From NCBI GenBank assembly GCA_964248365.1, contig CAXTYC010000015.1, positions 32,001 through 96,000 of the forward strand: DNA of 64,000 nt. Direction: 5' to 3'. Numbering within the stretch: the stretch's first letter is position 1; each line of letters starts with the position of its first letter. The translations under genes were made by a program, and so were the position numbers. A model generated the notes under the pieces. The model searched no databases. It saw only the letters and a program-made list of their open reading frames with translations, and was not told where the DNA came from. This DNA comes from an uncultured Chroococcidiopsis sp. (GTDB lineage Bacteria > Cyanobacteriota > Cyanobacteriia > Cyanobacteriales > Chroococcidiopsidaceae). This document shows, piece after piece, positions 6,785 to 31,151 of this stretch.

Positions 6785-9067
6785 TTATTCCTCAACTTCA
6801 CCAACGCGGCGCATATCAATAATGTCACTCATTTTCTTAATCTGAGTAAAAACGTGTTCGAGTTGGTTGCGATCGCGCACATCTATTCCCAATTCAATCA
6901 CCGCTGGCTGACCATAAGCAGTTTTCACTTGGGCATTACGCACATTGATCCCCACGTCAGTCAATCTTGACAGGATATCTCTAAGTACCCCTACTCGGTC
7001 AATTGCTTCGATTTGAATATTAACCGGATAAGTTTGGGGACGCATTCTTTGTGAGTCGGTTGAATTCCAACTCGTTGGTACTAGGCGATCGCACTGCACA
7101 TTTTCTACATTCTGGCATCCTTGGCGATGAATCGAAATTCCCCGATTGCTGCGTGTCGTCACCACACCGATAATTGATTCCCCAGGAATTGGACTACAAC
7201 ACTTTGCCAAATGATAAAGTAGCCCTTCTACTCCGGCTATAGGCGATTCACTTGCACGGGTTGGGGGTGAAACAGCGGCTTCTCGCAGCGATTTTGTATT
7301 ATTAGAAGGCAAGCTGGGGGGAACTTCCGAGTTAGTAACAAGTGGTTGCTGTGCTTTAACTACTTCTCGCCAACGATTTAGCACCAAGTTCAAAGTAACT
7401 TCGCCATAACCTAAAGCGGCGAGTAAATCTTCAACGCTGTGATAATTACATCGCTCTGCTACAGTTTGCATTGGTTCTGACTTTAACAAAGCTTCAAAGC
7501 CAGTTTTACCCATTTCCTTTTCTAACAATCCACGACCACGAGCGACGTTTTCTTCTCGACGCGATCGCTTGTACCACTGCCGAATTCTGTTTTTCGCTGC
7601 TGACGTTGTGACAAAATTCAACCAATCCAAACTCGGATGACTGTTCTTCTGAGTGATAATTTCTACAATATCCCCATTCTTCAGCGTTGTGTCCAGAGTC
7701 ATCATCCGCCCGTTGACTTTCGCCCCAGCACAACGATTTCCTACTTCGGTGTGAATTCGATAGGCAAAATCCACTGGCGTTGAACCTGGACTTAGGGGAA
7801 CCACATCTCCTTTAGGAGTGAAGACATAAACTTCATCTTCAAATAAGTTGTCTTTGATGCTTTCTAGATATTCCTGGGCATCTTTGAGGTCATTTTGCCA
7901 TTCCAATAGCTGCCTTAGCCAAGTAAACTTCTCGTCTACAGGTGTGAGCTTGGCATTACTAGAACCACCTGTTTCCTTATACTTCCAATGAGCGGCAATT
8001 CCATACTCTGCTACTTGGTGCATCTCCACCGTCCGAATCTGCACCTCTAGGGGACGACCTGTAAAACCGACGACAGCAGTATGCAAAGACTGATAGCGGT
8101 TCGGCTTGGGCAAACCGATATAGTCCTTAAATCGTCCAGGGATCGGTTTAAAGGCATCATGCACCACTGCCAAAGCACGGTAGCATTCCTCATTCGTTTT
8201 CACAATGATCCGAATTGCTGCCAGATCGTAAATTTCATGAAATTCTTTTTGCTGCCGCTGCATCTTTTGGTAGATTCCATAAAGGTGCTTAGGACGACCA
8301 CTGATGTCAAATACCTGAATGCCAGAGTGCGCCAACCCCTGCTGCAAAGTTTCTGTAACTTTTGTGAGTCTTTCCTCCCTAGCTGCTCGTTTTTCAGCTA
8401 CTAATTCCTGAATTTGACGATAAGCTTCGGGTTCGAGATACTTAAATGCTAAATCTTCCAATTCCCACTTAAACCGCCCGATCCCCAACCGATTAGCCAA
8501 GGGAGCAAATATTTCTCGTGTTTCCAGAGCGATGCGACGGCGTTTGTCATCTGGCAAATGTTCGAGTGTACGCATATTGTGCAGCCGATCCGCTAGCTTG
8601 ACTACAATTACGCGAATATCTTGAGCCATTGCTAAGAACATCCGCCGGAAGTTCTCGGCTTGGCGCTCAGTCTTGCTGGAGAAATTTTCCGAAAACTTTG
8701 ATAGCTTAGTTACACCTTCGACTAGATGCCGGACTTCTGCACCAAAGCGTTGTTCTATCTCTTCTGGCGTGACTGGCGTATCCTCAACCACGTCGTGCAA
8801 AAAACCAGCAGCAATCATAGCGCTGCCACCTCCTAAGTCCCGCAACAACCCAGAAACGGCGATAGGATGACAAATGTAAGGTTCTCCTGATTTGCGGTAT
8901 TGCTCTTTATGCAGGTTGTAGGCAAATTCAAAGGCTCGACAAATCAGGCTATTGTCTTGCTGCGATCGCTCTGAGTTTGCATGGCTATCTGGCGCTGCTA
9001 TTAAACAGTTTTGTAGCCAATCAGGAATAGCAACATCAAAGGGGGTAATGGGAGCCAGGGTGTTCAT
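6785..9067 (-). CDS. rel: Bifunctional (p)ppGpp synthetase/hydrolase (RelA/SpoT)
   Basis: HD motif LHDVVED, KLADRLHNMRTL, YQSLHT, EVQIRT, TGS and ACT domains. Confidence 0.97.
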   Translation of the reverse strand: MNTLAPITPFDVAIPDWLQNCLIAAPDSHANSERSQQDNSLICRAFEFAYNLHKEQYRKSGEPYICHPIAVSGLLRDLGGGSAMIAAGFLHDVVEDTPVTPEEIEQRFGAEVRHLVEGVTKLSKFSENFSSKTERQAENFRRMFLAMAQDIRVIVVKLADRLHNMRTLEHLPDDKRRRIALETREIFAPLANRLGIGRFKWELEDLAFKYLEPEAYRQIQELVAEKRAAREERLTKVTETLQQGLAHSGIQVFDISGRPKHLYGIYQKMQRQQKEFHEIYDLAAIRIIVKTNEECYRALAVVHDAFKPIPGRFKDYIGLPKPNRYQSLHTAVVGFTGRPLEVQIRTVEMHQVAEYGIAAHWKYKETGGSSNAKLTPVDEKFTWLRQLLEWQNDLKDAQEYLESIKDNLFEDEVYVFTPKGDVVPLSPGSTPVDFAYRIHTEVGNRCAGAKVNGRMMTLDTTLKNGDIVEIITQKNSHPSLDWLNFVTTSAAKNRIRQWYKRSRREENVARGRGLLEKEMGKTGFEALLKSEPMQTVAERCNYHSVEDLLAALGYGEVTLNLVLNRWREVVKAQQPLVTNSEVPPSLPSNNTKSLREAAVSPPTRASESPIAGVEGLLYHLAKCCSPIPGESIIGVVTTRSNRGISIHRQGCQNVENVQCDRLVPTSWNSTDSQRMRPQTYPVNIQIEAIDRVGVLRDILSRLTDVGINVRNAQVKTAYGQPAVIELGIDVRDRNQLEHVFTQIKKMSDIIDMRRVGEVEE

Positions 9068-9110
9068 AGGGACGGGCTTCAAACACTCTTATATGTAGAT
9101 TTAGGGAAAC

Positions 9111-9124: not shown

Positions 9125-9364
9125 AATGCTTCAGGATTGAGGTATTCAAAAATCGGCTATTACTACATTTTTAGTCTGAAGAGTAATAGCTTTGCCTTTG
9201 CTGTGTGCCTCAAGCGCGGCTATCGAAAGATTTTGACGGACGATTTGACTTTAGACTGAAAAAACCTCAAGCTTGCTTAAACTTTGTAGCTATCCTCAGT
9301 GTTGAATAGGGTTTATTCTATAACCAAAATTCTTTACATTAATACTATCCTAAGAATGGGATGT

Positions 9365-9736
9365 ATGTTGCCACATATTTATATTCAGCGCTATAACGAC
9401 TTTGCCATGATGCTTTTGCAGTTGCAACAAGCGGCAGCAGCTGGGGCGAGGATAGATGCACCTACCCTTCAAGAGAGTTTTTTGAAAGCACAACAATTTT
9501 TTCAGCAGCAGATAGTAAGTTTGGACAATAGTGACTTAGAGCCAGCTGATGAACCTAGAGTACGATCATATCAAACGGAGATCAGTAAACAACTACAGTT
9601 GTTAAGCATAGATGTGATGTTTTTGCAAGCGGCGCGCCAGCAACAAACGGCTACAATTAGACAAAACCAAATTCATTTGCGCCTGCAAACTTTGATTAGC
9701 TACTGTAATGCAATCATGGAAGGGGCTAGGGGCTAG
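9365..9736 (+). CDS. patD: PatD-family protein
   Basis: QQFFQQQI..RSYQTEISKQLQLL..DVMFLQAARQ..RLQTLISYC; divergent from rel. Confidence 0.8.
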   Translation: MLPHIYIQRYNDFAMMLLQLQQAAAAGARIDAPTLQESFLKAQQFFQQQIVSLDNSDLEPADEPRVRSYQTEISKQLQLLSIDVMFLQAARQQQTATIRQNQIHLRLQTLISYCNAIMEGARG

Positions 9737-10514: not shown

Positions 10515-10642
10515 CTAAGCTAAAGCGCATTTAAATTGCATATGATTAACTAGAACAAAAACGGTCAAACCTTCTCCCACTCTCCCACTCTCCCCCTCTC
10601 CCCCTCAATCTATACGAGTAAATTGAATGCCTAACAGCTTAG
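10515..10642. mobile_element. Degenerate MITE-like element
   Basis: Imperfect TIRs CTAAGCTAAAGCGCATTTAAATT / AATTGAATGCCTAACAGCTTAG enclosing TCTCCCAC-type repeats. Confidence 0.45.
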
Positions 10643-10753
10643 GACGCGCAGACACTCGTACAAATAACACTCGTACAGCGAGCTAAAAGATTCGTGAAAC
10701 TTTTAGGGTTGCTATATTTGAAGTGAGCTTGTTTCATTTTGTCAACCCCTGGC

Positions 10754-13165
10754 TTAAGCTGACAGGATTTTTGAAGAAGTTGGTGATGGGATGATATGCT
10801 TACTTAGCAAAAGTGTTGTAGCAGCCTGGCTATCTACAGGTTTAGAGAATAAATATCCCTGTCCAAATTGACAATTTAGATCTTTAAGTTGAGCCAGATG
10901 TTTCACTGTTTCCACCCCTTCAGCAACTACACTCATTCCTAAGTTACTGGCAAGTGCCATAATAGCCCGAACAATCTCCAATTGTTCGATATCAGTATCG
11001 ATTTTGTTAATAAAAGAACGATCAATTTTTAATGTATGGGTAGGCAAACGGTACAAATAAGCTAAGGATGAATAACCTGTACCAAAGTCATCAATGGAAA
11101 ATTGAATGCCTAGAGCCTGAAGTTGCAAAAGCATAGCAGTTGCAGACTCGGTATTTTCCATAATTACACTTTCGGTAATTTCTAACTTTAAACTACTAGG
11201 CTCTAATTCTGTTTCCAGCAGAATTTGTTTAATTTGTGCTATCAAATTTGGTTGAGCAAATTGCTTAGCAGAAAGATTTATGCTCATTACTAAAGATGAA
11301 TATTCGGTAAATTGCAAATGCCAGAGGCGCAGCTGACGGCAAGCTTCTCTGAATACCCACCACCCAATTGGTACAATCAAACCAGTTTCTTCTGCTAAGG
11401 GAATAAACTCTGCTGGAGAAACTAAACCCCGTTGGGGGTGCTGCCAGCGAATTAATGCTTCAAATCCTGTAATTTTACCATTTTGTAATGAAACAATTGG
11501 CTGATAATATAGCTGAAATTCCCCGCGCTCAATTCCGCGTCGTAGGTCAGTTTCTAATTGTAAAAGCACAACTGCTCGCGTGTGCATAGTGGTGTCAAAT
11601 ACCTCATAGCGAGCTTTTCCTAATGTTTTTGCACGATACATCGCTATGTCAGCATCACGCAGCAGGTCTTCCGCGCACTCATAACCAATAGTACTAGAAG
11701 CAATACCAATGCTGGCTGAGGTGAATACTTCATGTCCATCTAGATAGAAGGGCATTGTTAATTCTTCTTGCAGCCGATCAGCAATATTGGTTGTAACACT
11801 AACGTCTTTAATATCTTCTAGCAGAATTGTGAACTCATCTCCCCCCAGACGGGCGACTGTATCACCAATCCGTAGGTGCTTCTCTAGTCGGCGGGCGATC
11901 GCAATTAACAACTGATCACCAACTGCATGACCAAGACTATCATTAATCAGCTTAAAGCGATCAAGATCCAAGAAAAGTACTGCAAATGAATAATTCCTAC
12001 GCCGCTTTCCCAGAGAAAGTGCATGGCTCAACCGCTCCATGAATAAGATTCGGTTAGGCAACCCTGTCAAGGCATCGTGTAAGGCATCATGCAATAATTT
12101 TTCTTCGGTATATTTTCGAGCGCTAATATCCGTCTGTAACCCAACTATGCGATAGGCTTTTCCTGATGCATCCCTCACTACAACGGCGCGGCTGAGCATC
12201 CAACGATAGGTTCTGCCTTTACATAGAATGCGGTATTCACTTTCAAATTGCACGCTTAGCTCAGCCAGATGGTTCAGAATTTCCATCTTTATTCGTTCAA
12301 CATCTCCCGGATGGATGCGACTGAACCAATCATCTAAAGTATTCCCAATCTCGCTTTCCTGATAGTCCAGCATTGATTTCCATCGCGGCGAAAAGTAAAC
12401 CTCGTTAGTTCTCAGGTTCCAGTCCCACAGCCCATCATTGATCCCTTGCATGGCAAGGGCATAGCGCTCTTCACTCTCTTGCAGTGCTGCTTCTATCTGC
12501 TTGCGCTGGGTTATATCAATTTCTATAAAAACTGCGGCTTGCTCCTGTGTGTATTTCTGAGCAATAATCAGGTGGCTACGACAATTAGCTTTATTTTGAG
12601 TATTAATTTCTAAAGAGCTTCTTGTTGCTGGTTTAGCAAAAAAATCTTTGACAAATTCGATCCTTTCTGGGCTGCTGTTGAGAAAGTCAATAGGCTGACC
12701 AATAAAATCTTCAGGACATAAATCGAAAGCTCTAGCTAGCTGGTGGTTGACTCCAAGATATTTTAAGTTTGAACTCACCCAATAAATCTGTGCAGGAACT
12801 GCATCCAGAACAGCTTTAAATTGCTCTGTTGCTTGTTCTTGAGTATCAACAGCGCCAACTTGAGGCATAGACCAGCAGGCGATCGCAAATCCAACAAAAG
12901 TTAAAGTAATTAACACTATTACAAATAACTGGGTGCTGGAATGACCAGAGACGCTATTTAGCCCAGTACTCAGATAACTAACAACAATAGTACTGCACAG
13001 CAAAAGCAGTAGGCTCAATACTTGAGGGTTTACAAAGTTAAAGGCAATGCTTGTCGCAGATCTAGTGTAATGCTGCCACCACCATTGAGGATGAAAGGAG
13101 GCAAAAAAATACTGATTGCAGGTTAGGCGTGCAGACGAAGGCTGATTTAGACCCAGATTCTCCAT
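10754..13165 (-). CDS. Membrane-anchored PAS-PAS-GGDEF-EAL diguanylate cyclase/phosphodiesterase
   Basis: Two N-terminal TM segments, PAS/PAC, RLGGDEF, GFEAL, DDFGTGYSSL. Confidence 0.95.
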   Translation of the reverse strand: MENLGLNQPSSARLTCNQYFFASFHPQWWWQHYTRSATSIAFNFVNPQVLSLLLLLCSTIVVSYLSTGLNSVSGHSSTQLFVIVLITLTFVGFAIACWSMPQVGAVDTQEQATEQFKAVLDAVPAQIYWVSSNLKYLGVNHQLARAFDLCPEDFIGQPIDFLNSSPERIEFVKDFFAKPATRSSLEINTQNKANCRSHLIIAQKYTQEQAAVFIEIDITQRKQIEAALQESEERYALAMQGINDGLWDWNLRTNEVYFSPRWKSMLDYQESEIGNTLDDWFSRIHPGDVERIKMEILNHLAELSVQFESEYRILCKGRTYRWMLSRAVVVRDASGKAYRIVGLQTDISARKYTEEKLLHDALHDALTGLPNRILFMERLSHALSLGKRRRNYSFAVLFLDLDRFKLINDSLGHAVGDQLLIAIARRLEKHLRIGDTVARLGGDEFTILLEDIKDVSVTTNIADRLQEELTMPFYLDGHEVFTSASIGIASSTIGYECAEDLLRDADIAMYRAKTLGKARYEVFDTTMHTRAVVLLQLETDLRRGIERGEFQLYYQPIVSLQNGKITGFEALIRWQHPQRGLVSPAEFIPLAEETGLIVPIGWWVFREACRQLRLWHLQFTEYSSLVMSINLSAKQFAQPNLIAQIKQILLETELEPSSLKLEITESVIMENTESATAMLLQLQALGIQFSIDDFGTGYSSLAYLYRLPTHTLKIDRSFINKIDTDIEQLEIVRAIMALASNLGMSVVAEGVETVKHLAQLKDLNCQFGQGYLFSKPVDSQAATTLLLSKHIIPSPTSSKILSA

Positions 13166-13902
13166 ATCAATTAGCTATACATCCTGAACTAAAAATTTTT
13201 GCTAAGTATTCCTGCTGGTATCAAATCTCTAAAGCTTTTAAAGCAGATATATTTGTATCCAAAACTTAATTAACTCTCTAAAATATGAATATGACTAAGT
13301 TTTACTTAATAAAAACCATTATTTTTTTTATTCACTGAATCTTTATTAAGATATTGCTCTAATTATTTTTTACTTAAATTTAAGTATTTTCTCCCAGTTT
13401 TTATTTCCAAAGCTATATTCAAGCAAAATTATTTTGTTGATTAGCTTGCTAAAATATCGAATCATATTTCTGTTGCTATAGCCTACTCTAGCAAAGTCCT
13501 CTACCAGTCTCTTGTCAACTCTTTCATTAGTTTTTTAGAAACTATCAATGTTACCTTACTGCTCCAGGGGCTTAGGTAATGCTACTCTACGAATTACATT
13601 AACATAACAATTTATATTAAATATATATCTCACCCTAAAAACAACCGAAAAAATACTTAAATTAAAACTTAAACTTCAAATCTTCAATTGCTAACGGTTT
13701 AAATGATAATTTAATAAAATAGCTTGTTTATTGCAGGTACTTAATGGAATATTAGTAACATACGACAGATAAGTTTAATCGTGTTTTTCACGTCTTTAAC
13801 CTGTAACAATACTGCTTAGTTATTGCAATTAATATAATAAAAACTAAATAAAACTTATTAACTGAAGCATTATATTTTTGAAATTCTTGAAAGAAGAAGC
13901 AG

Positions 13903-15678
13903 ATGATTGAAATTAATCTCAAGAAAATTGTCAGCAAGAAAGAAGTAATTGCCGTTTTGAATTACCTTGCCGAGGAAACAGGGGCTGCCATTCAGATTGA
14001 GGATGCAGCAGGTAAAAAACTAATCGGAGCGAACAGCGAGAATTTTACCCATAAATACCCGATAGAACTTTCAGACAAAGTGATTGGTTGGGTGCTTGGC
14101 GAGGAAAAAGTTGTCGTTGCTGCTAGCCTTATTTCCTACCTGGTAAAACAGGAGTTTGAGAAGAAGGCACTTACCAACGAATTACTAGATAAGTACCGAG
14201 AGATCACCCTACTTCATAATATTGCTACTCAAATTACTGGCAGTTTGGACTTGAAAGAGGTTGCCCAATTAGTAATTGAGGGGGTGGGGAAACTGATTGA
14301 GTCAACGGGAGGTTCAATTTTACTACTCAATCAAAAAACAAATCAGCTGGAGCCACTCTCGACATTTGGGCAAGCTTTTCCTTCCCAGGAACCTCTGAAA
14401 TTGGGAGAGGGAATTATTGGCAGCATTGCTCAAACAGGCAAGGGTGAGATTGTCAATGATGTTTTCTCTGATCTCAGGTTTACTCATTATCAAGAACTAG
14501 TCAACTCTTTCATTTGTGTACCGCTAAAGACGAAGGAGCAAATGATTGGGGTGATATTCCTTTGGAGCCATTGTACAAATGACAATAATAGTCAAAGCTC
14601 GATTACCTACACTTCCGAAGATCTGAAAATTTTGACCATGTTTGCGTTCCATGCGGCGGTAGCAATTGAAAATGCTCTGCTTTATGAGCAAACTTGTGCC
14701 GCAGCTACGGTTGCACAGGCTCAGGCACAGCAACTACAGCAAGCCCTATACGAGTTGCAACACACTCAAGCTCACCTAATTCAGAGTGAGAAGATGTCTA
14801 GCTTGGGAGAGCTTGTGGCAGGAATTGCCAATGAAATCAATAATCCAATCAACTTTATTCATGGAAATCTTACCTACGTTAGTCACTATGCCCAGAATCT
14901 GTTGACTTTGGTTAACCACTACCAGCAGTGCCACTCTACGGGTGATCCCAAAGTTAAGTCATTGTTGCAAGACATAGACATTGAATTTCTCACCGAGGAT
15001 TTACCTAAGACTTTAACTTCTATGAAAGTTGACGTAGAGCGCATTCGCAAGATCGTGCTTTCGCTGCGAAACCTCTCTCGCTCTGATGAGGTTGAGATGA
15101 AACCTGTCAATATCCACGAGGGTATCGATAGCACCCTGCTAATCTTGGAGAGCCGCCTGAAGCCAATGGGCAAGCATTCTGGCATTCGGATAGTGAAAAA
15201 TTACAGCAAACTGCCTCTGGTGGAATGCTATGCCAGTCAAATAAATCAGGTGTTTATGAATATCCTTGCTAATGCGATCGATGCCCTAGAGAATCAGACA
15301 GAACCAGGCATCATCACGATCCATACAGAAGTGAGGGAAGAATTGTCTCCTGACTTGCTACTTCCTACTACCTATGTAGTAATACGTATTCAAGACAACG
15401 GTTCTGGAATCAATCAAGAGATGCTTGCCCGCCTGTTTGATCCCTTCTTTACCACGAAGGCGCAAGGCAAGGGCGCGGGGCTAGGGCTTTCTATTAGTCA
15501 TCAGATTATCGAGAAGCATGGTGGGGCTCTAAAATGCCTATCCCAACCTGGGCAAGGGGCTATCTTTTCGATTCATATTCCAGTCAAGCCAACAATTATG
15601 TTGCAACCTATATTTCATTCTTCTACTGGCACAACAGGAATTTTTAACTCAAAGCGATCGCTTGCCCAGGTTGCCTGA
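13903..15678 (+). CDS. GAF-domain sensor histidine kinase; phosphoacceptor His replaced by Asn
   Basis: GAF, SEKMSSLGELVAGIANEINNP (canonical AHEINNP), N box NILANAIDA, DNGSG, FFTTK, GKGAGLGL. Confidence 0.88.
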   Translation: MIEINLKKIVSKKEVIAVLNYLAEETGAAIQIEDAAGKKLIGANSENFTHKYPIELSDKVIGWVLGEEKVVVAASLISYLVKQEFEKKALTNELLDKYREITLLHNIATQITGSLDLKEVAQLVIEGVGKLIESTGGSILLLNQKTNQLEPLSTFGQAFPSQEPLKLGEGIIGSIAQTGKGEIVNDVFSDLRFTHYQELVNSFICVPLKTKEQMIGVIFLWSHCTNDNNSQSSITYTSEDLKILTMFAFHAAVAIENALLYEQTCAAATVAQAQAQQLQQALYELQHTQAHLIQSEKMSSLGELVAGIANEINNPINFIHGNLTYVSHYAQNLLTLVNHYQQCHSTGDPKVKSLLQDIDIEFLTEDLPKTLTSMKVDVERIRKIVLSLRNLSRSDEVEMKPVNIHEGIDSTLLILESRLKPMGKHSGIRIVKNYSKLPLVECYASQINQVFMNILANAIDALENQTEPGIITIHTEVREELSPDLLLPTTYVVIRIQDNGSGINQEMLARLFDPFFTTKAQGKGAGLGLSISHQIIEKHGGALKCLSQPGQGAIFSIHIPVKPTIMLQPIFHSSTGTTGIFNSKRSLAQVA

Positions 15679-15761
15679 AGCAAAAATCGTAGGTTTTCAG
15701 TAGAAGAGCGCTTTGTGCTGATTGTGATTGCTTATTCCCGATTCAAATAAGGTAAAAAATA

Positions 15762-18700
15762 ATGCTGAACAATTTAGAATCTACATCTATTCATCAATTG
15801 GTAGAGTCCCAAGCTTTACAAACCCCTGATGCTGTAGCGGTGATCTTTGGTCAGGAGCAACTGACCTACCGCGAACTCAACCAAAAAGCTAATCAATTAG
15901 CGCATTATCTACAAACTCTAAATGTAGGACCTGAAGTGCTAGTTGGAGTTTGTCTAGAGCGAAGTCTCTCAATGTTGATTGGGCTGTTAGGGGTTCTCAA
16001 AGCAGGTGGAGCTTATGTACCGCTAGATCCCTCCTTTCCCCAAGAAAGGTTAGCTTTCATGCTGGAGGACTCAGAAGTTCCAGTTCTGCTAACCCAACAA
16101 CATTTGCTTGAGATTTTGCCAGAGCGTGAAGGATTAAAAATTGTATGCATAGATACAGACTGGCAGGCAATAACTCAGCACACAGAAGAGAATCTTGACA
16201 GCCCAGTTAGCCCCGAAAACCTAGCCTACACTATTTATACTTCAGGCTCAACTGGCAAACCGAAAGGTGTGCAGATCGTCCATCGTGCTGTTGTTAACCT
16301 GCTTAAGTCTATGCAACAAGAGCCAGGACTCACCCAGTCAGATATTTTCCTGGGAATTACTACGATTTCCTTTGATATGTCAGTCCCAGAACTCTACTTA
16401 CCCCTGATAGTAGGTGCGCGAATTGTTCTAGTTAGACGAGAAGCGGGGAGCGATCCTGCCCAATTATCCAAGATTTTATCTGAATCTGGCGCTACCGTCA
16501 TGCAAGCTACGCCAGCAACTTGGCAACTTTTGCTCAGCGCAGGCTGGAAAGGAAATAAACAGCTAAAAATGCTGTGCGGCGGGGAAGCAATGACGCGATC
16601 GCTAGCCGATCAACTGCTCGAAAAAGGTGGCTCTGTTTGGCAGATGTACGGACCTACTGAAACGACTGTCTGGTCAGCAGTCTATCAAGTAAAGCCTGGA
16701 ATCAATCCTGTACCAATTGGTTATCCGATTGCAAATACGCAAATCTATCTCATACATGGACCAGCACGTAGGAAAGATGACTTATTACAACCTGTTCGGG
16801 TGGGAGAGCCTGGAGAAGTCTACATTGGTGGGGTAGGACTTGCTCGCGGTTATCTAAACCGTCCTGAACTCACGAGCGAAAGATTCATTCACGACCCCTT
16901 CAGTGACGATCCTGACGCACGCCTTTACAAGACTGGGGATTTAGCTCGTTACTTACCAGATGGCAGCATTGAGTTCATCGGTCGTATTGACTATCAAGTT
17001 AAAATTCGTGGTTTCCGAGTTGAGTTGGGAGACATTGAGGCAGCGCTGAGTCAATATCCAGTAGTCACAGAGGCTGCTGTTGTTGCCAAAGAAGATGCTT
17101 CTGGTAGTAAATGTCTAGTTGCATATATTGTTCCAAAGCTAGAGCCATCTGAGAAAAAAAACCTGGTTCCACAGCTGCGCGTATTTCTGAAGGAAAAACT
17201 CCCCAACTACATGGTTCCTTCAGTATTTGTTGTGATGGAATCCTTGCCCCTAACTCCTAGTGGTAAGATTGATCGGCGATCGCTCCCCGATCCGAAAAAC
17301 AGCAGAAAGAGTTTAGCAGAGGTATTTATTGCACCTTCTACCCCAATGGAGAAGCAATTAGCCCAGATTTGGTCGCAGGTTTTAGGCATTGAGGAAATAG
17401 GTATCTATGACAATTTCTTTGAGCTTGGAGGACATTCGCTCTTATCGGTTCAATTACTTTCTCAGGTAAGAGAAGCGTTTCAGGTAGATGTGCCTCTGTT
17501 TTACCTTCTTAAGGAACCAACCATAGCAGGACTGATCGAAGCGATTAATGTAGTTCAGAACTTAAGTTCTGCGGCTGTAGACAAGGAAACTGAGATAGAC
17601 TTACAAGCCGATGTTGTCCTCGACCCCACGATTAGTCCTAAGACTCCTGACGTTCAGCCTACAACAGAGCCAAAGCATATCTTTTTGACTGGAGCAACTG
17701 GTTTTCTCGGTGCTTTCTTACTACACGAGCTTCTAGAGAAAACTGGGGCAACCATCCACTGTCTAGTTCGTTCCAGAAGCCTTGAGGAAGCGGGGCAGAG
17801 AATTCAAAGTAATCTAGAACGCTACTTACTTTGGAATGAACAGTTAAGTTCCAGAATCATTCCAGTATTAGGGGATCTAACGCAACCCTTGTTAGGACTT
17901 AGTGACCAAGAGTTTTCTAAGTTGGCACTGAAGCTCGATTCAATCTATCACAATGGTGCATTCGTTAATATGGTTTATCCATACTCTGAACTTCGAGCAG
18001 CTAATGTACTGGGTACTGGGGAAGTTTTAAAATTAGCCAGTCTTGTCAAAGTTACTCCCGTCCATTTCATCTCTACTCTTGATATCTTCCAATCATCTTT
18101 CTACTCTAAGATGGATGTCATTCCTGAAAATGTTGACCTCGTCTATAGTGAAGATTATTACAATGGATACGCTCCAAGTAAATGGGTAGCTGAAAAGTTG
18201 ATGACGGCTGCACGAGAGAGGGGGATTCCTGTCTGTATTTATCGGTTAGGAATGGTGACAGGTCATAGCTATACAGGGGTTTCTCAAACAAATGATTTAA
18301 TGTGCAGATTGATCAAGGGCATGATTCAAATGGAAAGTGCGCCCCAGTTGGATCGTATGATTAACATGACTCCAGTAGACTACGTGAGCGGGGCGATCGT
18401 TCACTTATCGATGCAGCCAGAATCAATAGGGAAAGCTTTTCACCTGAACAATTCCCATCCCTTACACTTGAGCGAATTTGTTAGTGAGATCCGCGCTCTG
18501 GGCTATCCCATTGAGCAGATTCCTTACGATGAGTGGCTTTCACAGCTACTACAGCCTGATTTTTCGCGGGAAAATGTTTTGCGTCCGCTGTCTTTTCTAC
18601 TAACTAAGAGGTTTGAACAACAACTGTCCTATCTAGAGATATCCTTGCTAGCATCCCAGACATTCGATTGCCAGAACACAATCGACGGGCTTATAGGGAC

Positions 18701-18875
18701 ATCTATTGTTTGTCCACCAGTCGATGCCCAACTGTTGAATGTTTACTTTTCCTATTTCAGTCGTAGTGGTTTTCTACAACCTCCTTTAGTGGATGTTAAG
18801 GAAAGCTTCGTATTCGACCAGATACTAGAAGCTAAGACTAAGTTACAGCTACTAGTAGGCAGCGGGCAAAAATAA
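15762..18875 (+). CDS. Stand-alone NRPS-like enzyme: adenylation-PCP-thioester reductase (A-T-R)
   Basis: YTSGSTGKPKG, YGPTE, YKTGDL, GRIDYQVKIRG, PCP FFELGGHSL, reductase TGATGFLG and YAPSKWVAE; no condensation domain. Confidence 0.93.
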   Translation: MLNNLESTSIHQLVESQALQTPDAVAVIFGQEQLTYRELNQKANQLAHYLQTLNVGPEVLVGVCLERSLSMLIGLLGVLKAGGAYVPLDPSFPQERLAFMLEDSEVPVLLTQQHLLEILPEREGLKIVCIDTDWQAITQHTEENLDSPVSPENLAYTIYTSGSTGKPKGVQIVHRAVVNLLKSMQQEPGLTQSDIFLGITTISFDMSVPELYLPLIVGARIVLVRREAGSDPAQLSKILSESGATVMQATPATWQLLLSAGWKGNKQLKMLCGGEAMTRSLADQLLEKGGSVWQMYGPTETTVWSAVYQVKPGINPVPIGYPIANTQIYLIHGPARRKDDLLQPVRVGEPGEVYIGGVGLARGYLNRPELTSERFIHDPFSDDPDARLYKTGDLARYLPDGSIEFIGRIDYQVKIRGFRVELGDIEAALSQYPVVTEAAVVAKEDASGSKCLVAYIVPKLEPSEKKNLVPQLRVFLKEKLPNYMVPSVFVVMESLPLTPSGKIDRRSLPDPKNSRKSLAEVFIAPSTPMEKQLAQIWSQVLGIEEIGIYDNFFELGGHSLLSVQLLSQVREAFQVDVPLFYLLKEPTIAGLIEAINVVQNLSSAAVDKETEIDLQADVVLDPTISPKTPDVQPTTEPKHIFLTGATGFLGAFLLHELLEKTGATIHCLVRSRSLEEAGQRIQSNLERYLLWNEQLSSRIIPVLGDLTQPLLGLSDQEFSKLALKLDSIYHNGAFVNMVYPYSELRAANVLGTGEVLKLASLVKVTPVHFISTLDIFQSSFYSKMDVIPENVDLVYSEDYYNGYAPSKWVAEKLMTAARERGIPVCIYRLGMVTGHSYTGVSQTNDLMCRLIKGMIQMESAPQLDRMINMTPVDYVSGAIVHLSMQPESIGKAFHLNNSHPLHLSEFVSEIRALGYPIEQIPYDEWLSQLLQPDFSRENVLRPLSFLLTKRFEQQLSYLEISLLASQTFDCQNTIDGLIGTSIVCPPVDAQLLNVYFSYFSRSGFLQPPLVDVKESFVFDQILEAKTKLQLLVGSGQK

Positions 18876-19010
18876 CTTGAACAATTTCACATTCATCTAA
18901 AAGGGCTAGCCTAACTGAAGTTCCAAAACTAAAGGGATTTAGTTATAAAGAGAGTTAGCTAAATTTTTTGGGAATTCTAGGTACTAGTAGTCTAATTATT
19001 AGTGCCAAAT

Positions 19011-22000
19011 ATGAAGAGTACTCAGGCAGGCGTAACTTCAGCGCCCCATCTTCCTCGCACTCTCAACCCTTTGGAAACCTATGGCTTTGGACTAGCAGGA
19101 CCTCCTGGCTGGACAGGTGTAGTTGGGCTAATCCATGCGGCGCTAGCTTCACAAGCTATTTTTGTCTGGATTCCAGTGACATTGATTGGGGTGTTAATCA
19201 ACTACCAAGTGAAGCGTCTGGGGATGTCTCAGGTAGACGTAGCTGGGGGTACACCTAACTACATTTCCAGGTTGCTCAATCGTTACCCAATTGTTGCTCG
19301 CTATGCTGCAATTGGGTATCTGCTCAATTGGGTTTCAAGTATATCACTAAATGCCATTATCCTCACCGACTTGGTTCAGGGCAATCTTGAGGTATTTGGC
19401 ATTACGCTGCCCACAATGTTCGTGCGCGTCGGTTTTATGCTGTTGCCCTTTATATTGGCACTTAGTGGCACCCGTGCCTTAAGCATCCTGCTCTTATTTT
19501 TTATTCTTCCATCTATTGGGCTGCTCGTGGTATTCAGTCTACAGGGGCTGGGCTGGCTAGCACTGTCTCCAGATAGTCCTGGCTTTTTTCCCACGAGTTG
19601 GGGTGAGTTTAACTTTGCTTCCTGGGCAAAGTGGTTCTTTTTCGCAACCTTTGTTACCTACAGTAGTGAAACCGCCTCATCGTTTGTTGCCGATAGTCGC
19701 CGCCCTGTTGAAACCCTTCGCTTCCTAGACTTTGCTGCCTGGACGGGTGCAATCATCTTTATTGGTGGGGCTTGGGTAGTAATGCGATTAGCTCCTGGTG
19801 CAGCTTTAGGTTCAAGTAATTCAGACGATCCGTTTCTAAATCTAGTGGCTGCTTCCAAACCCTTTTGGGGTCAATCTGCATCACTGATTGTCACCTTCTT
19901 ACTAGGATCTTCTTGCCTGCTTACTATTGCAACGGCTGTTTCCAACTGTCCCCGAATCTTGTATCAGCTTGCCCTGGATAAGCATCTCGCACCAGTTTTT
20001 AGCGTTGTGTCACGGCAGGGAGTATTTGGTCCCGCATTAACCTTAGTTTTCGGGCTGGCAATGTTCTTTCTCCTTTGGGGAGATGTTGCCCATATTGTGG
20101 TTGTCGGTAATGTAAGCTGGTTCGTGTCCTTCACACTGCTGCATTTATCTGTCTGGTTACAACGAGGTAGAGCGGAGGTTCTGGCTCCGCGATTATCCTT
20201 GGGCATTTTTCTATTGGAAGTAATTGTCCTGTTCGTGGGTGGAATAGCTTGGGAGTGGCAATACTTTTTGATTGGGTTGCTTGCTCCGGTTGGGATTTTG
20301 ACGATTGATGCTGCCATCCGACGTATTCGATTTGCTCCCTTTCGCCCAACTTGGTGGATACAGCGATATAAAGCAAATACTTCGATCAGGATCAAAGACC
20401 TACTAATTTTCCAAGTCACTGTCCTGATCGTTTTGATCTGTGGAGCAGTTTTGATTGGTTGGGGGTTTAGATCGCTTTTAAATTCAGGTACAGCTGAGCA
20501 ATCTAACAACCTCATTCTTGTACTGATGATGATCGTTGCATTTATAGGAGTGGCGATCGCCTGCTGGACTACTTTGCCCCAGGTATTTGAGCTAGAACTC
20601 CGAGTCGAGGAGCGTACTGCCTATTTAAGTGCCATCATTGATAACTTAGCAGACGGTCTACTGGTGGTTGACCTAAATGGCAAGATTGTTCGCACGAATC
20701 CGGTTCTATTCACACTATTTGGTTTTGAAAACACCGAGTTGAGCGATCACAATTTTGAGATTGTGTTCAATCGCAAAGTTGTAGAACTAGTGGAACAGAC
20801 CCGCAAATCTCCAGAAAAAGTCTTTGTTGCGGAAATTGCCCTGACAGGTGAAAAAACGGGTAAGGCAGTGGCAACTGCCATTATGAGAAATTCGAGTTTT
20901 GCAAATGACAAAAATCAACACAATCAGTCTATTGGTTCAGTGCTGCTAATTCGAGATATCACATCTGATAAAGAAGTGGATCAGATGAAGACTGATTTTA
21001 TCTCCACAGTCTCGCACGAATTGAGAACGCCGCTAACTTCCGTACTAGGTTTTGCCAAGATTATTAAGAAAAAACTGGATGAGACAATATTTCCACTACT
21101 AAGCCCTGATGATAAGAAAGTTCAGCGCAATATACGGCAAGTAGGAGACAATATCAACATTATCTTATCAGAAGGCATCAGGCTGACCGATTTGATCAAC
21201 GATGTTCTAGACATCGCTAAGATGGAGGCAGGCAAGATTGAATGGAAAATGGAACCGCTGCAGATAACTGAGGTTGTAGAACGGGCGATCGCTGCTACCT
21301 CTGCTCTATTCCAACAGAAAGACCTAAAATTGATTCAGGAAATCGAACCAGGGTTGCCCTCTGTTATGGGCGATCGCGATCGATTGATCCAAGTAGTCAT
21401 TAACCTGATCTCCAATGCGGTGAAGTTTACTGACAATGGCTCAGTTACTTGCACAGTGGGTAAAGATGACAACACAATTACCGTTAGCATAATTGACGCG
21501 GGTATAGGTATTGCCTCGTCTGACCTAGACAAGGTATTTGAGAAATTCAAGCAGGTTGGTGATACACTCACTGACAAACCCAAAGGCACTGGTTTAGGGC
21601 TACCTATCTGTAAACAAATTGTGGAACATCATGGGGGTAGAATTTGGGTTGAAAGCGAACTGGGCAAGGGTAGTAATTTCTCCTTTACCTTACCGATAAG
21701 TACTGCTTGCGAAATGAAGATCAAGACCTTAGATATGGATACTTTGGTCAAGCAGCTGCGGGAACACGTAGTCATAAACTCATCTGTTTCGGCAGCCCGT
21801 CAGAAAAATATTTTAGTGGTGGATGACGATGCCAATATCCGGCAACTGCTGCGGCAACAACTAGAAGCTGAAGGCTACATAATCAGAGAAGCAAAGGACG
21901 GGATAGAGGCGATCGCACAGGTTAAAAAATCCGTCCCCGATTTGATTATTCTAGATGTGATGATGCCTGAAATGAGCGGCTTTGATGTTGCTGCTGTACT

Positions 22001-22445
22001 AAAAAATGATCCTAAAACTATGGGAATTCCGATTATTATCTTGTCTATTGTCGAAGACAAAGAACGGGGCTATCGTCTGGGAATCGAACGCTATTTAATG
22101 AAACCAATTGAAACCGAAACACTGTTACATGAAATTGGCACATTGATTTCTCAAGGCAATTCCTGCAAAAAAGTTTTAGTGGTAGATGAAGATTTGTCAA
22201 CTGTTAAAACCTTGTCTGAGGTATTACAGGCAAAAGGATACAGCGTGGTTGAGGTAACTAACGCCGAGGAACTGCGCGAAAAGGCAATGTCAGTTGTACC
22301 CTATATGATTGTTGCCAATGCCAACCTTTGGCAATCTGAAGTCATTAAAACCTTACAGTTTGAAAAAGGGTTGGAAAATGTCTTCTTTATCTTATTAGCA
22401 GACAATCTAGCTAGTAGTAAAAAAAATGAATTTTTATTACTTTAA
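19011..22445 (+). CDS. APC amino-acid permease fused to PAS-HisKA-HATPase-receiver-pseudo-receiver (hybrid sensor kinase)
   Basis: ~520-aa polytopic APC-like N-terminus ([27 protein letters not shown]), [26 protein letters not shown], receiver LDVMMP; alternative GTG start at 19002. Confidence 0.88.
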
Positions 22446-22560
22446 ACCAATTATTACTAATAAAGAAATAGCTTGGTTAACCTTAGTACGAGTCTTGTCA
22501 AATATTGAGAGAATATTTGTAAACTTCTGAAAGTTATATTTTGATATTCAAAGGTGTTGC

Positions 22561-22938
22561 ATGAATCAGAAAATCTTGATTGTAGATGATGAACCCCATG
22601 TCAGGCTACTAATAGAGCAAACGTTGGAAGAGTTAGAAGATGAAGGAGTAGAGCTGTTATTTGCGGAAAATGGAGAATTAGCGCTAGAAATAATTAAAAA
22701 CGAAAAACCTCAACTCGTTTTTTTGGATGTGATGATGCCCAAAATGAACGGTTTTGACGTGTGCAATTGGGTTAAGCATAAATTGGGTCTTGAAGATATT
22801 TACATCGTTATGCTAACTGCTAAAGGTCAGGAATTTGATAGGCAAAAAAGCATTGAAGTTGGAGCTGATATGTATACTACCAAGCCATTTGATCCTGATG
22901 AAATTCTTAAGAAGTCCCAAGAAGTGCTGGGTATCTAA
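22561..22938 (+). CDS. Single-domain response regulator (CheY-like)
   Basis: IVDDE, FLDVMMP, MLTAKG, TKPF. Confidence 0.93.
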   Translation: MNQKILIVDDEPHVRLLIEQTLEELEDEGVELLFAENGELALEIIKNEKPQLVFLDVMMPKMNGFDVCNWVKHKLGLEDIYIVMLTAKGQEFDRQKSIEVGADMYTTKPFDPDEILKKSQEVLGI

Positions 22939-23055
22939 TAGGATTCCAGATTTTAGATTTCAAGATTGTAGAAGTATTTCCATTGGGGAATTTCAAAAAT
23001 ATTGTTTTTGCAACAATAAAAATAAATGGTGTAAAGTAATATTTTTACATATAGT

Positions 23056-23805
23056 GTGTTAAATAGTCATGGGATGTGGCATCCACCACCCATAGAATTA
23101 ACATTATCCAAGAGTGATGTTCATGTTTGGCGTGCTAGTCTCGACCAACCAGCAGGACGTATTCAACAGCTAGCACAAACTCTTTCTGCTGACGAACATC
23201 TTCGGGCGGAACGTTTCTACTTTGATCTCGATAGAGCGCGTTTTATCGTCGGTCGAGGGCTACTTAGAGCAATCCTGAGTCGTTACTTGGGTATGGCTGC
23301 CAATCAATTACAGTTTTGTTATAGCTCTCGTGGTAAACCGGATTTGACAAAAACGTCAGGTGGAGATAGGCTGCGGTTTAACTTATCTCATTCCCAAGGA
23401 CTCGTTTTGTATGCAGTGAGTTGGGATCGCTCTATTGGCATCGATCTTGAACACATTCGTCCAATTGCCGATATTGAGCAGATCGTCAAAAGCTTTTTTT
23501 CAGACTATGAAAAGACTGTCTTTGAACACCTTCCTCCACACCAAAAACAAGTAGCATTTTTTAATTGCTGGACTCGTAAGGAAGCTTTCATCAAAGCCGT
23601 TGGTGAGGGGTTGGCTTTACCCCTCGATTCTTTTGATGTCTCACTTGCTCCTGGTGAACCAGCCAGACTACTAAGAATCAAAAGCGAAAGAGCAATATCA
23701 AAGCGCTGGACACTTCAAGACTTGACGCCAGCGCCAAATTATGCTGCTGCCTTAGCTGTCGAAGGAAAAGGATGGAATTTTGCCTGTTGGGAATGGGCTG
23801 AGTGA
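23056..23805 (+). CDS. Sfp/HetI-type 4'-phosphopantetheinyl transferase
   Basis: GKP, FNLSHS, IGIDLE, WTRKEAFIKA. Confidence 0.93.
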   Translation: MLNSHGMWHPPPIELTLSKSDVHVWRASLDQPAGRIQQLAQTLSADEHLRAERFYFDLDRARFIVGRGLLRAILSRYLGMAANQLQFCYSSRGKPDLTKTSGGDRLRFNLSHSQGLVLYAVSWDRSIGIDLEHIRPIADIEQIVKSFFSDYEKTVFEHLPPHQKQVAFFNCWTRKEAFIKAVGEGLALPLDSFDVSLAPGEPARLLRIKSERAISKRWTLQDLTPAPNYAAALAVEGKGWNFACWEWAE

Positions 23806-23959
23806 GGGGCTAGAGACTAGGGATTAGGGGCTAGGGAGATGGGGAGAGGGGGAGCAAAAGGGAGCAAAAGGAAGCAAAAGGGAGCAAAAGGAAGATTCTT
23901 CTTTTCAAAATTCAAGGCTCCAAAATCCTCTAGTCCCTAGCCCCTAGCCCCTAGTCCCT
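23805..23959. repeat. STRR arrays forming an inverted arrangement between convergent genes
   Basis: GGGCTAG-type repeats, (GGAGCAAAAG)n and complementary CCCTAGC repeats. Confidence 0.75.
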
Positions 23960-27090: not shown

Positions 27091-28626
27091 CTAACTTGTT
27101 ATACTCTCTTCGCAACTCTCCCCTTCCTCTCTCTGCGTCCTCTGCGCCTTTGCGGTTCGTTTTAAAGATATCACTCGCTCCCCCCTAATCTCCACCTGAC
27201 GCTCTTCCAACCATTTTTGCCAACCATCACGAGTACCAATCGAACGAGAATTTTTCAGCAAGCCTAACTTCTCTTCGAGGCGAGTCAGATTAGCAAATCG
27301 CTCATACAAAGGATAGCTAGGAGTAACAAAAGTTTCCTTGCGGTGCAAAATGGGCGGATTAGCTGTATTCTCGTAATTGCGATAAGTTACCGTCAAATCG
27401 CGCAAGTTAACTTGCATACTAGTATGCAAAGCTGGATGGGGATCGGTATCGAATTCGGGGTAAAACAGATACGATATTTTAGGTTTATTGGTATAAAACT
27501 TAACTAAAGTAGCCAATTCTAATCGCCCAATTGCGCGGCTAGCACAGCCTTCGTATATTCGCAGGAGGGGATCGAGTGAGGCGATCGCGCTCACATGAAC
27601 GTACAAAGCAGTAGGTAAGTGCTTACCAATCTTACTCTTGAGGCAGCTTTTAGCAACCACACCAGGCTTACCCAAACTAAAAAGCATTTTGTCAGCTACT
27701 TCACAAGCTTCTTGATAATCACCAAAAAAGGCTTTGATGTCGTGGCGAATTTCTGGTGCTAACTGCAACGGTGTAGGGCGTTGACCCAAAGAGCTAAGAG
27801 CTAGATATACTAATATATCAAGTGAGTGACGATAGGCGATCGCATCCCAATCAGCTTCATCTGTGGCTTGCAAAATCACTTTAAAGGCACGGCGAAGGCT
27901 ACCAAATTCGCTCACCAGTTGTGGTTCATCTGGCAACTCACCTTTGACAGGTAATCTTCCCCGTTCAGTCACAAAAGCCATCAGCGGTGCTAGCTGTTCT
28001 TGATAGTCCTCAAAGCGTTTACTGGGAATACGCACTCTAGGTGTTGTAGTTCCAGAGCGAAAGCGCAAAGCGCGAAAACTTTCTCGCTCTTGCTCAGAGC
28101 GAAAGACAAAATAGATGCCTAGTGCCACTGGCACTGCATCTACATTTAACACTTCATCAATGTAATTTTTCAGTTCTTCTTGGTCGTAATATTTTTGGAA
28201 CGTGTTACGGCGAGTAATGATGCCGTCTGCGTAAGCTATTTGATTGCTACTGCGGTCATTAATCAGTACTTGGGCAGAGACAATTAAAACTTTGCGGGTA
28301 AGTTCCCAAGCATTTATTAAGGCTTGACGGCGCTCATCTAAATCTTCAATCACGTTGAGGACGTAGCCCAGATTAACTATGTCAGATGGTATGCGTGGGG
28401 CTTGGGGACGGTAATACGGGTCCCAACCAGCGCAGGTGTAGTTTAGCTTAGCTATTCGTTCAAGATCGCCACCATGACCACATCCATAATCAAAAAATGT
28501 GGTATCGTTATTTAAGATTGCCGATTCTATTGCTAATCGCACAGGACGAGAAAGTTCAGGGCGAAACATAGCGGCTCGATGGCGTTCGATCTCTAGTGGT
28601 TCTGATTGGTAGCTAGACTCGACCAT
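27091..28626 (-). CDS. DNA phosphorothioation-associated putative methyltransferase (TIGR04096-like)
   Basis: ERHRAAM, FDYGCGHGGD, WDPYY, VNLGYVLNVIE, FQKYY, PPILHRKE; overlaps the dndE stop. Confidence 0.88.
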   Translation of the reverse strand: MVESSYQSEPLEIERHRAAMFRPELSRPVRLAIESAILNNDTTFFDYGCGHGGDLERIAKLNYTCAGWDPYYRPQAPRIPSDIVNLGYVLNVIEDLDERRQALINAWELTRKVLIVSAQVLINDRSSNQIAYADGIITRRNTFQKYYDQEELKNYIDEVLNVDAVPVALGIYFVFRSEQERESFRALRFRSGTTTPRVRIPSKRFEDYQEQLAPLMAFVTERGRLPVKGELPDEPQLVSEFGSLRRAFKVILQATDEADWDAIAYRHSLDILVYLALSSLGQRPTPLQLAPEIRHDIKAFFGDYQEACEVADKMLFSLGKPGVVAKSCLKSKIGKHLPTALYVHVSAIASLDPLLRIYEGCASRAIGRLELATLVKFYTNKPKISYLFYPEFDTDPHPALHTSMQVNLRDLTVTYRNYENTANPPILHRKETFVTPSYPLYERFANLTRLEEKLGLLKNSRSIGTRDGWQKWLEERQVEIRGERVISLKRTAKAQRTQREEGESCEESITS

Positions 28627-29011
28627 GAGAGTGTAAAGCAATTGCGATTAAGTCTTCGATTTTTTTGATGTTAGGATCGCCCGCCAAATAGCCAATACCG
28701 CGATGCAGGTGCAGGCGAAATTGCATGGCGAGGGTTTCCTTGTCAGTGCCTAAGTTGTCATTGTAGCAGCGTTGTTTGAGGGCAAGTAGAAGGATATCTG
28801 ACATTTCTCCCCCAAAGACACGCCAAGTCATCTCGACGTTGCTATCTGTTGGAATTGGCACGGGTGAGGGTATAGTTGGTTCTGCCAGGGAACGACAGAA
28901 CGCCCAGCGACACAATATGTTCCATTGGTCGATTTTCGTGCTGCGTTTGAGTTTGGTAAGTTGATCTTTGGCTGTTTGGGAAAGGCGAATTCTTTCAATA
29001 GGTGATTCCAT
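28613..29011 (-). CDS. dndE: DNA sulfur modification protein DndE
   Basis: IRLSQTAKDQLTKLKR, WNILCRWAFCRSL, HLHRGIGYL; follows dndD. Confidence 0.9.
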   Translation of the reverse strand: MESPIERIRLSQTAKDQLTKLKRSTKIDQWNILCRWAFCRSLAEPTIPSPVPIPTDSNVEMTWRVFGGEMSDILLLALKQRCYNDNLGTDKETLAMQFRLHLHRGIGYLAGDPNIKKIEDLIAIALHSHGRV

Positions 29012-29063
29012 AATATTGGTAGTTGGTAGTTGGTAATTGGTATAACTCATTACCCATTACCCA

Positions 29064-31070: not shown

Positions 31071-31151
31071 AGTGAGTAGTGGGTAGAGAAGTAGAGAAGT
31101 AGAGACGTAGAGAAGTAAAGAAGTAGCAATGCTACGTCTCTACTTCTCTAC

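Follow-up and report, generated by a model that had tools for sequence, protein, structure and literature searches.

The closest described relatives of the system reported here are Vibrio CqsA/CqsS, staphylococcal agr, and Bacillus ComQXPA, in which a signal-making gene lies next to a gene for a membrane histidine kinase. In agr and ComQXPA, the synthase and the N-terminal sensor of the receptor form a hypervariable block between conserved transmitters. The same pattern was found for a cassette in a 64,000-nucleotide stretch of DNA (the window) from an uncultured Chroococcidiopsis sp., where a stand-alone nonribosomal peptide synthetase (NRPS) with adenylation, thiolation, and thioester-reductase domains (A-T-R) precedes a hybrid histidine kinase with an APC-permease-like membrane domain. 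The cassette differs from the known loci in its NRPS-like reductase synthase, predicted amino-alcohol signal, dCache_1 or APC sensors, and lack of a DNA-binding regulator. We read it as a circuit in which a self-made amino-alcohol signal would be perceived by a cognate receptor and feed phosphorelay and cyclic di-GMP (c-di-GMP) outputs, and assign this reading a probability of about 50%. The proposed circuit is of a known kind; its predicted chemistry and its receptors are new. The enzyme/receptor pairing was not described in the literature searched, which excluded most subscription journals, or in the parts covered of an NRPS survey across the phylum, supplements included (PMC4247773). This agrees with a preliminary description of this DNA, whose author knew of no characterized cyanobacterial system of this architecture.

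Each component has partial counterparts. Xenorhabdus ATRed (PMC7586950), fungal ATRR (10.1101/559534), and diatom PtNRPS1 (PMC13194791) likewise lack a condensation domain and reduce one amino acid with an A-T-R(-R) arrangement; PtNRPS1 makes tryptophanol, which is active at low concentration, and the parts of these reports that were covered mention no cognate receptor. ATRR, as far as covered (10.1101/559534), has no conserved gene neighborhood and lacks Asp235, and both ATRR and PtNRPS1 have two R domains. Assignment of the window enzyme as an ATRR-like betaine reductase was rejected, as it has one R domain and retains Asp235. MxaA, which carries out a four-electron reduction, has a similar R domain but releases polyketide-bound alaninol from an assembly line, whereas the window module stands alone. 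On the receptor side, yeast Ssy1 and CbrA (SLC5-STAC-histidine kinase; PMC13022988, in the parts covered) likewise use a LeuT-fold transporter domain for sensing. CbrA combines SLC5 with STAC and transports histidine, while the window domain is APC-like with two extra helices. The APC kinase had no SSF or STAC match in Pfam or NCBIfam and was not classed with CbrA/CrbS; the likeness is one of concept. The dCache_1AM sensors PctD, PacA, McpX, and 3LIB are the best structure matches of the dCacheY domains (below) of related genomes, not of the window's own sensor, and the passages covered on this amine-sensor motif and family report no linked synthase (10.1101/2023.04.06.535858).

One cassette, five versions

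The cassette comprises the following genes and gene parts:

10754-13165 (−): divergent diguanylate cyclase/phosphodiesterase, two transmembrane helices (TM)-PAS-PAS-GGDEF-EAL, with GGDEF and EAL motifs intact
13903-15678 (+): cytoplasmic protein with an N-terminal domain, GAF, and a histidine-kinase-like region (GAF and HATPase_c)
15762-18875 (+): A-T-R enzyme (AMP-binding, PP-binding, NAD_binding_4), candidate signal synthase, no methyltransferase
19002-22445 (+): APC hybrid kinase (weak AA_permease, PAS, HisKA, HATPase_c, REC)
19002-20590 (+): its APC/LeuT-fold membrane sensor part, TM1 motif AGPPGW, two extra C-terminal helices
20589-22445 (+): its transmitter part, PAS-HisKA(His672)-HATPase-REC-degenerate REC
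22561-22938 (+): CheY-like single-REC response regulator, acceptor Asp present
23056-23805 (+): Sfp/HetI-like phosphopantetheinyl transferase (PPTase)

The preliminary description had claimed five tightly co-oriented genes with no condensation domain or exporter. Coordinates and domain searches bore this out: the five open reading frames lie on the plus strand with intergenic gaps of 83, 126, 115, and 117 bp, and neither feature is among the domain matches. The divergent GGDEF-EAL gene is a sixth member of the cassette; an ortholog occupies the same position in three other genomes of the genus (G001, G002, and G004), and its N-terminus is a remnant of the last two helices of the APC sensor (31% identity over 131 amino acids, E 1e-14).

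Gene order is the same in five genomes of the genus, and the enzyme and sensor contents differ, with methyltransferase (MT) or PilZ inserts in some enzymes and two types of dCache_1 sensor (dCacheX and dCacheY):

G000 (genome of the window): A-T-R with the DMPQ specificity code, APC sensor
G001: Ala enzyme, dCacheX
G002: Pro enzyme, dCacheY
G003: Pro-PilZ enzyme disrupted by an insertion sequence and by a stop; the dCacheY start that follows is intact
G004: Gly enzyme with MT, dCacheY

Among G001, G002, and G004, the flanking signaling proteins (transmitter, GAF kinase, CheY, cyclase domains, and PPTase) are 91%–100% identical overall, with values of 96%–97% for the kinase core, 93%–98% for the GAF kinase, 99%–100% for GGDEF/EAL, and 91%–98% for the PPTase. 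Identities are 40%–43% for the A cores, 44%–51% for the R domains, and 16%–59% for the sensor pockets. The synthase and sensor form a hypervariable block between conserved genes, and DNA identity is lost within the 5′ end of the NRPS gene and again within the receptor gene. The window carries a further version of this block. Its transmitter shares 77%–78% identity with the dCache_1 kinases that its congeners have in this slot, and its CheY-like protein is 83%–84% identical to those in G001, G002, and G004. The joint between its APC domain and the shared transmitter, a stretch of 12 residues, falls exactly on the coiled coil at which the dCache versions are fused. The window A-T-R is sister to the G004 enzyme and colinear with it except for the 1.3-kb MT block of the G004 A-MT-T-R. 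In G022 and G018, the same flanking genes enclose an APC-GGDEF-EAL protein, an A-MT-T-R, and a PPTase. The cassette kinases were not found with these queries in G005 (95% complete) or G006 (89%). The swap is observed; that the slot is an exchangeable signal-synthase/receptor cassette with agr-like alleles, whose versions would act as pherotypes, we hold at even odds. Different enzyme and receptor versions in the same slot suggest undescribed cell-to-cell signaling with strain-specific dialects.

Linkage of enzyme and sensor across cyanobacteria

The APC domain was found in 39 of 301 genomes in a sample of the cyanobacterial phylum. The same genomes were searched with the T-R part of the enzyme (113 nonself rows, four candidates scored per genome). 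Sixty-two loci were examined and 51 were omitted, mostly T-R frames of 400–570 amino acids, along with seven of about 2,000 amino acids or more and one R-first. Of the 22 stand-alone A(-MT/-PilZ)-T-R genes, 16 have a sensor kinase of the dCache_1 or APC type in the same orientation within 1.3 kb, compared with 0 of 40 other R-domain loci, a control that ruled out chance clustering. Outputs at linked loci are phosphorelay, cyclase, and phosphatase proteins. The general unit pairs a stand-alone A-T-R with a membrane sensor, which is usually of the dCache_1 type. Most pairs lack the GAF kinase, CheY, and PPTase, and the five genes of the preliminary description are not a general unit.

Linkage was also examined from the sensor side, with about 9 kb fetched on each side of APC matches. 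Of 53 loci with a recognizable APC sensor, one has an A-T-R nearby and five a pyridoxal phosphate-dependent decarboxylase; a general link between APC kinases and A-T-R genes was rejected at this count, in which several loci end at contig edges. The proposed pairing of a synthase with a cognate receptor was therefore too narrow when tied to APC (1/53) and found broader support when other sensors were counted (16/22). Co-occurrence does hold within subclades. All five loci of the window's APC subclade (at least 70% identity) lie directly downstream of an A-T-R-type gene, with TM1 motifs AGPPGW or AGIPGW (L011, L151 from Phormidesmis priestleyi, L152 from Kamptonema, L153, and L164); in L153 the enzyme gene is split across two frames and the sensor is cut off by the contig end. 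In a comparison of 83 distinct APC domains (three duplicates removed), a second clade, with TM1 mostly TGHVGWIGT, lies beside A(-MT)-T-R genes at five loci and decarboxylase genes at seven. The decarboxylases carry a GYPYN motif in 7/7 cases, and the one tested is nearer to plant Ser/Ala decarboxylases than to histidine decarboxylase. The Tyr of this motif is the serine-specificity residue of AtSerDC, an ethanolamine producer (PMC11407765, in the parts covered). The occurrence of either a serine-decarboxylase-like gene or an A-T-R beside the same APC clade points to ethanolamine-type amino alcohols. Next to some APC kinases lies a BioF-like gene; it scores above the BioF cut-off and was regarded as an ordinary neighbor. 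Elsewhere in G000, a decarboxylase with a GYPIN motif lies opposite a probable APC-type permease (C10:30441-33426).

In the pairs sampled, sensor type follows the predicted product of the enzyme. In a first set of loci, all 13 dCacheX sensors had unmethylated Gly/Ala enzymes as partners and all five dCacheY sensors had MT or Pro enzymes. Further samples were selected by enzyme alone. The top 30 A-MT-T-R matches (nine already seen) included 26 without a condensation domain, and these had 13 dCacheY, four APC, and no dCacheX sensors within 1.5 kb. Among 20 further loci without MT, dCacheX accompanied 7/9 Ala enzymes and dCacheY 1/2 Pro enzymes. In total, dCacheX goes with unmethylated Gly/Ala enzymes in 20/20 cases and dCacheY with N-methylating or Pro enzymes in 17/17, giving 37 pairs without exception but few phylogenetically independent contrasts (below). 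Across families, dCacheY pockets group according to the code of the partner enzyme in all but one of 15 cases, and the best solved relatives of these domains include the amine-binding 3LIB, PacA, and McpX. At two loci (L215 and L217), a Gly-code A-T-R is followed by a co-oriented membrane protein of a further sensor-like type. At L125:3418-11865, genes for an amine methyltransferase of the PNMT family and for a dCache_1 hybrid kinase lie downstream of an A-MT-T-R.

Predicted chemistry, receptor fold, and neighboring genes

The window enzyme has A, T, and R domains, no condensation domain, and intact catalytic motifs (A3, A10 Lys, carrier Ser, NADPH motif, and Thr/Tyr/Lys). Its A domain belongs to a Gly clade and has the variant specificity code DMPQLGMVW(K). 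Codes were read by motif against PheA numbering and fell into a Gly class (DILQLGMIW), two classes that we take to be Ala and Pro, and the D[ML]PQ variant of the window. DILQLGMIW is given as a Gly code in the part of PMC12283262 that was covered. The best solved match of the R domain is MxaA (PDB 4U7W, E 8e-107), with the catalytic Thr/Tyr/Lys aligned; the match to carboxylic acid reductases is far weaker (E 6e-38). The enzyme probably converts a small amino acid to an amino alcohol, a prediction made because of the MxaA-like R domain, the convergence on a serine-type decarboxylase, the ethanolamine-permease-like neighbors of related enzymes, and the amine-type sensors. The pyrazine product raised in the preliminary description is less likely given the R domain and the decarboxylase stand-in beside one APC clade. 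A separate class of stand-alone A-T-R enzymes with the code DVWYFGIVV and no downstream sensor (L211-L213 and L216) probably has a different function.

Many A-T-R homologs contain PilZ inserts, and those with Gly codes adjoin ethanolamine-permease-like genes. In L088, L089, L093, L134, and L219, the PilZ domain is inserted in the A subdomain; such enzymes are apparently NRPSs gated by c-di-GMP. A two-module A-PilZ-T-C-A(Pro)-T-R NRPS directly follows a Ser/Thr kinase-AAA-GAF-histidine kinase gene in L096 (1841-14231), L103, and L104, and is a possible dipeptide-alcohol variant under c-di-GMP control.

The fold of the window's sensor domain is sound. Its AA_permease Pfam match is weak (E 5e-5, below cut-off), but the AlphaFold2 (AF2) model (predicted local distance difference test 82.6, predicted template modeling score 0.85) matches KimA, LAT1, ApcT, and AdiC in Foldseek, which identifies an APC/LeuT fold; LysP in a profile search and ESM Atlas clusters agree, and the APC-permease-type domain named in the preliminary description is upheld. 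Pocket-side positions in TM1, TM3, TM6, and TM10 vary among 83 homologs against an invariant scaffold, a pattern compatible with a family of receptors and neutral as to transport. Receptor domains with this APC fold are common in cyanobacteria and are fused to kinases, GGDEF-EAL, or SpoIIE; one APC domain 82% identical to the window's carries a GGDEF-EAL output (P0003). Tandem arrays of two or three APC-fold kinases with differing TM1 motifs (L015, L020, L161, and L162) suggest panels of amine or amino acid receptors.

The APC protein of the window is a hybrid histidine kinase with the H-box His672, the ATP domain, and the first receiver Asp intact; its second receiver lacks the acceptor Asp. 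The preliminary call of a GAF kinase stood in part: GAF and HATPase_c are present, but Asn310 (codon AAT at 14830-14832) replaces the H-box His, and because of this replacement the protein is probably a pseudokinase or phosphatase. The H-box residue is His in 103 of 120 homologs, unreadable in 14, and Asn, Ser, or Gln in the other three. The GAF kinases of G001, G002, and G004 retain the His, and the nearest named relatives of the window's GAF protein are Chroococcidiopsis proteins at 72% identity. The PPTase is the sole close Sfp-type match in the genome and therefore probably also serves its other NRPSs.

The circuit would operate as follows. The PPTase would prime the A-T-R by established chemistry. 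The enzyme would activate a small amino acid through its Gly-clade pocket, and a reduction that uses NADPH and most likely transfers four electrons would yield an ethanolamine-type amino alcohol. The product would leave the cell and bind the APC-fold domain, setting the activity of the hybrid kinase, and phosphate would pass from His672 to its own receiver and to the CheY-like regulator. Two other members of the cassette, the GAF protein and the c-di-GMP enzyme, may be further nodes, and the PilZ inserts of many homologs may provide c-di-GMP feedback. Relatives exchange the enzyme specificity core, MT or PilZ insert, and receptor ligand domain together and keep the transmitter, which would produce strain-specific signal types. 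The identity of product and ligand, secretion, and density dependence are all predictions.

Scans for promoters and terminators in the cassette gave chance-level counts (21 vs 19.8 and 10 vs 10.0), and orthology to HrmK was dropped (251 bits against a cut-off of 725). Contigs from four DNA runs cover the region in short pieces, none spanning the cassette; joints from 10606 to 23934 in these contigs were not accepted as an empty site because they run through short repeats with 179 and 462 genome matches. Next to the HEAT-repeat gene flanking the window's cassette, five genomes of the genus (L078-L082) retain a second GGDEF-EAL gene, whose APC tail is truncated. Elsewhere in the window are a PatD-family gene (heterocyst frequency control, above cut-off; 9299-9736, plus strand) adjoining relA/spoT (6785-9082), and a DNA phosphorothioation cluster with dndC, dndD, dndE, and an associated putative methyltransferase (27091-32756, minus strand) and a divergent DGQHR protein gene (33073-34671, plus strand).

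Competing explanations and meaning

Several observations weigh against a private amino-alcohol circuit. Ethanolamine-like molecules are common metabolites and make poor private signals. No recognized sensor was present in the DNA fetched for 6/22 stand-alone A-T-Rs (two of the six lie near ethanolamine-permease-like genes), 9/26 MT-type loci, or 12/20 further loci without MT. Sensors also work without a linked synthase, since 52/53 APC loci have no A-T-R and the window's own genome, G000, encodes an orphan dCacheY protein within a chemotaxis-like operon (C57:3445-5841) and an orphan dCacheX hybrid kinase (C13:104215-107835). The association of sensor and chemistry is weakened because linked genes travel together anyway; an R-domain tree of 36 pairs (before G003 was added) holds three independent contrasts, all as expected (P = 0.25). 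The amine motif of dCacheY can be aligned to 3LIB and PacA in the C-terminal half only (aromatic pair, P-Y-x-aromatic, and terminal Asp), with the N-terminal motif positions unaligned, and dCacheX has no close solved relative. The window's specificity code had no match in the literature, where tables given as images could hide an assignment or a cluster family. The permease-like neighbors score 354–362 bits, below the cut-off of 381.75, and the window's GAF kinase lacks its phospho-His.

The circuit could also run on another molecule: reduction by the R domain might end with the amino aldehyde, which would then serve as the signal itself or as its cyclic dimer (pyrazine or piperazine). A Xenorhabdus minimal NRPS, ATRed, releases phenylalaninal that dimerizes to a pyrazine (PMC7586950), and the alcohol-making fungal and diatom enzymes have a second R domain (10.1101/559534 and PMC13194791, each in the parts covered) that the window enzyme lacks. 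We nevertheless consider this unlikely: the R domain is far nearer to MxaA than to carboxylic acid reductases, a gene that would yield ethanolamine directly replaces the NRPS beside one APC clade, and N-methyl and Pro products cannot simply aromatize. In a metabolic-feedback reading, the receptor would monitor the amino acid substrate or the pool of product inside its own cell and adjust the enzyme accordingly, and no signal would pass between cells. This would suit an APC fold, which binds amino acids, and the PilZ inserts together with the linked c-di-GMP enzyme point to feedback on the synthase; among known proteins, CbrA acts as a nutrient transceptor (PMC13022988, in the parts covered). 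Such feedback is improbable, as sensor class tracks the MT insert, which alters the product and not the free substrate, and a dCache_1 domain between two membrane helices faces outward. Social signaling also accounts better than housekeeping for the presence of five different alleles among five congeners and for a disrupted synthase next to a receptor that is intact.

The receptors might instead detect amines of plants, fungi, or neighbors, with the A-T-R feeding an amino alcohol to another pathway, such as that of sunscreen mycosporines bearing ethanolamine or alaninol, and clustering reflecting co-regulation. Most APC and some dCache sensors have no linked synthase, tandem APC kinases occur, and permease-like uptake genes adjoin some A-T-Rs. 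This account leaves the joint replacement of enzyme core and sensor pocket unexplained, and the window's cassette holds no downstream biosynthetic genes (no genome-wide search for mycosporine genes was made); we think it distinctly improbable. Least probable is an allelopathic or kin-discrimination compound whose receptor turns on self-protection. Polymorphic linked pairs are typical of such systems and amino aldehydes are reactive, yet exporter, immunity, and detoxifying genes are absent from the cassette, and the outputs are phosphorelay, cyclase, and phosphatase proteins. 

Returning to a self-made amino-alcohol signal, we tentatively extend it, at somewhat less than even odds, to a widespread, undescribed form of quorum sensing in filamentous and coccoid cyanobacteria. 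In this view, minimal NRPS reductases or a serine decarboxylase would make a small alphabet of signals, namely ethanolamine, alaninol, prolinol, and their N-methylated forms. Three unrelated receptor domains that can take each other's place, two of the dCache_1 type and one with an APC fold of transporter origin, would perceive these amino alcohols. Strains would change pherotype by exchanging cassettes, PilZ inserts would subject the synthase to c-di-GMP feedback, and some strains would act as receivers only.

It has long been debated whether cyanobacteria exchange chemical signals, and by what means. The cassette supplies named enzyme-receptor pairs, predicted ligands that can be purchased, and soluble dCache domains for binding tests. 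It would also give a role to many orphan single-module NRPS genes, define a family of APC-fold receptors, and offer orthogonal sender-receiver parts.

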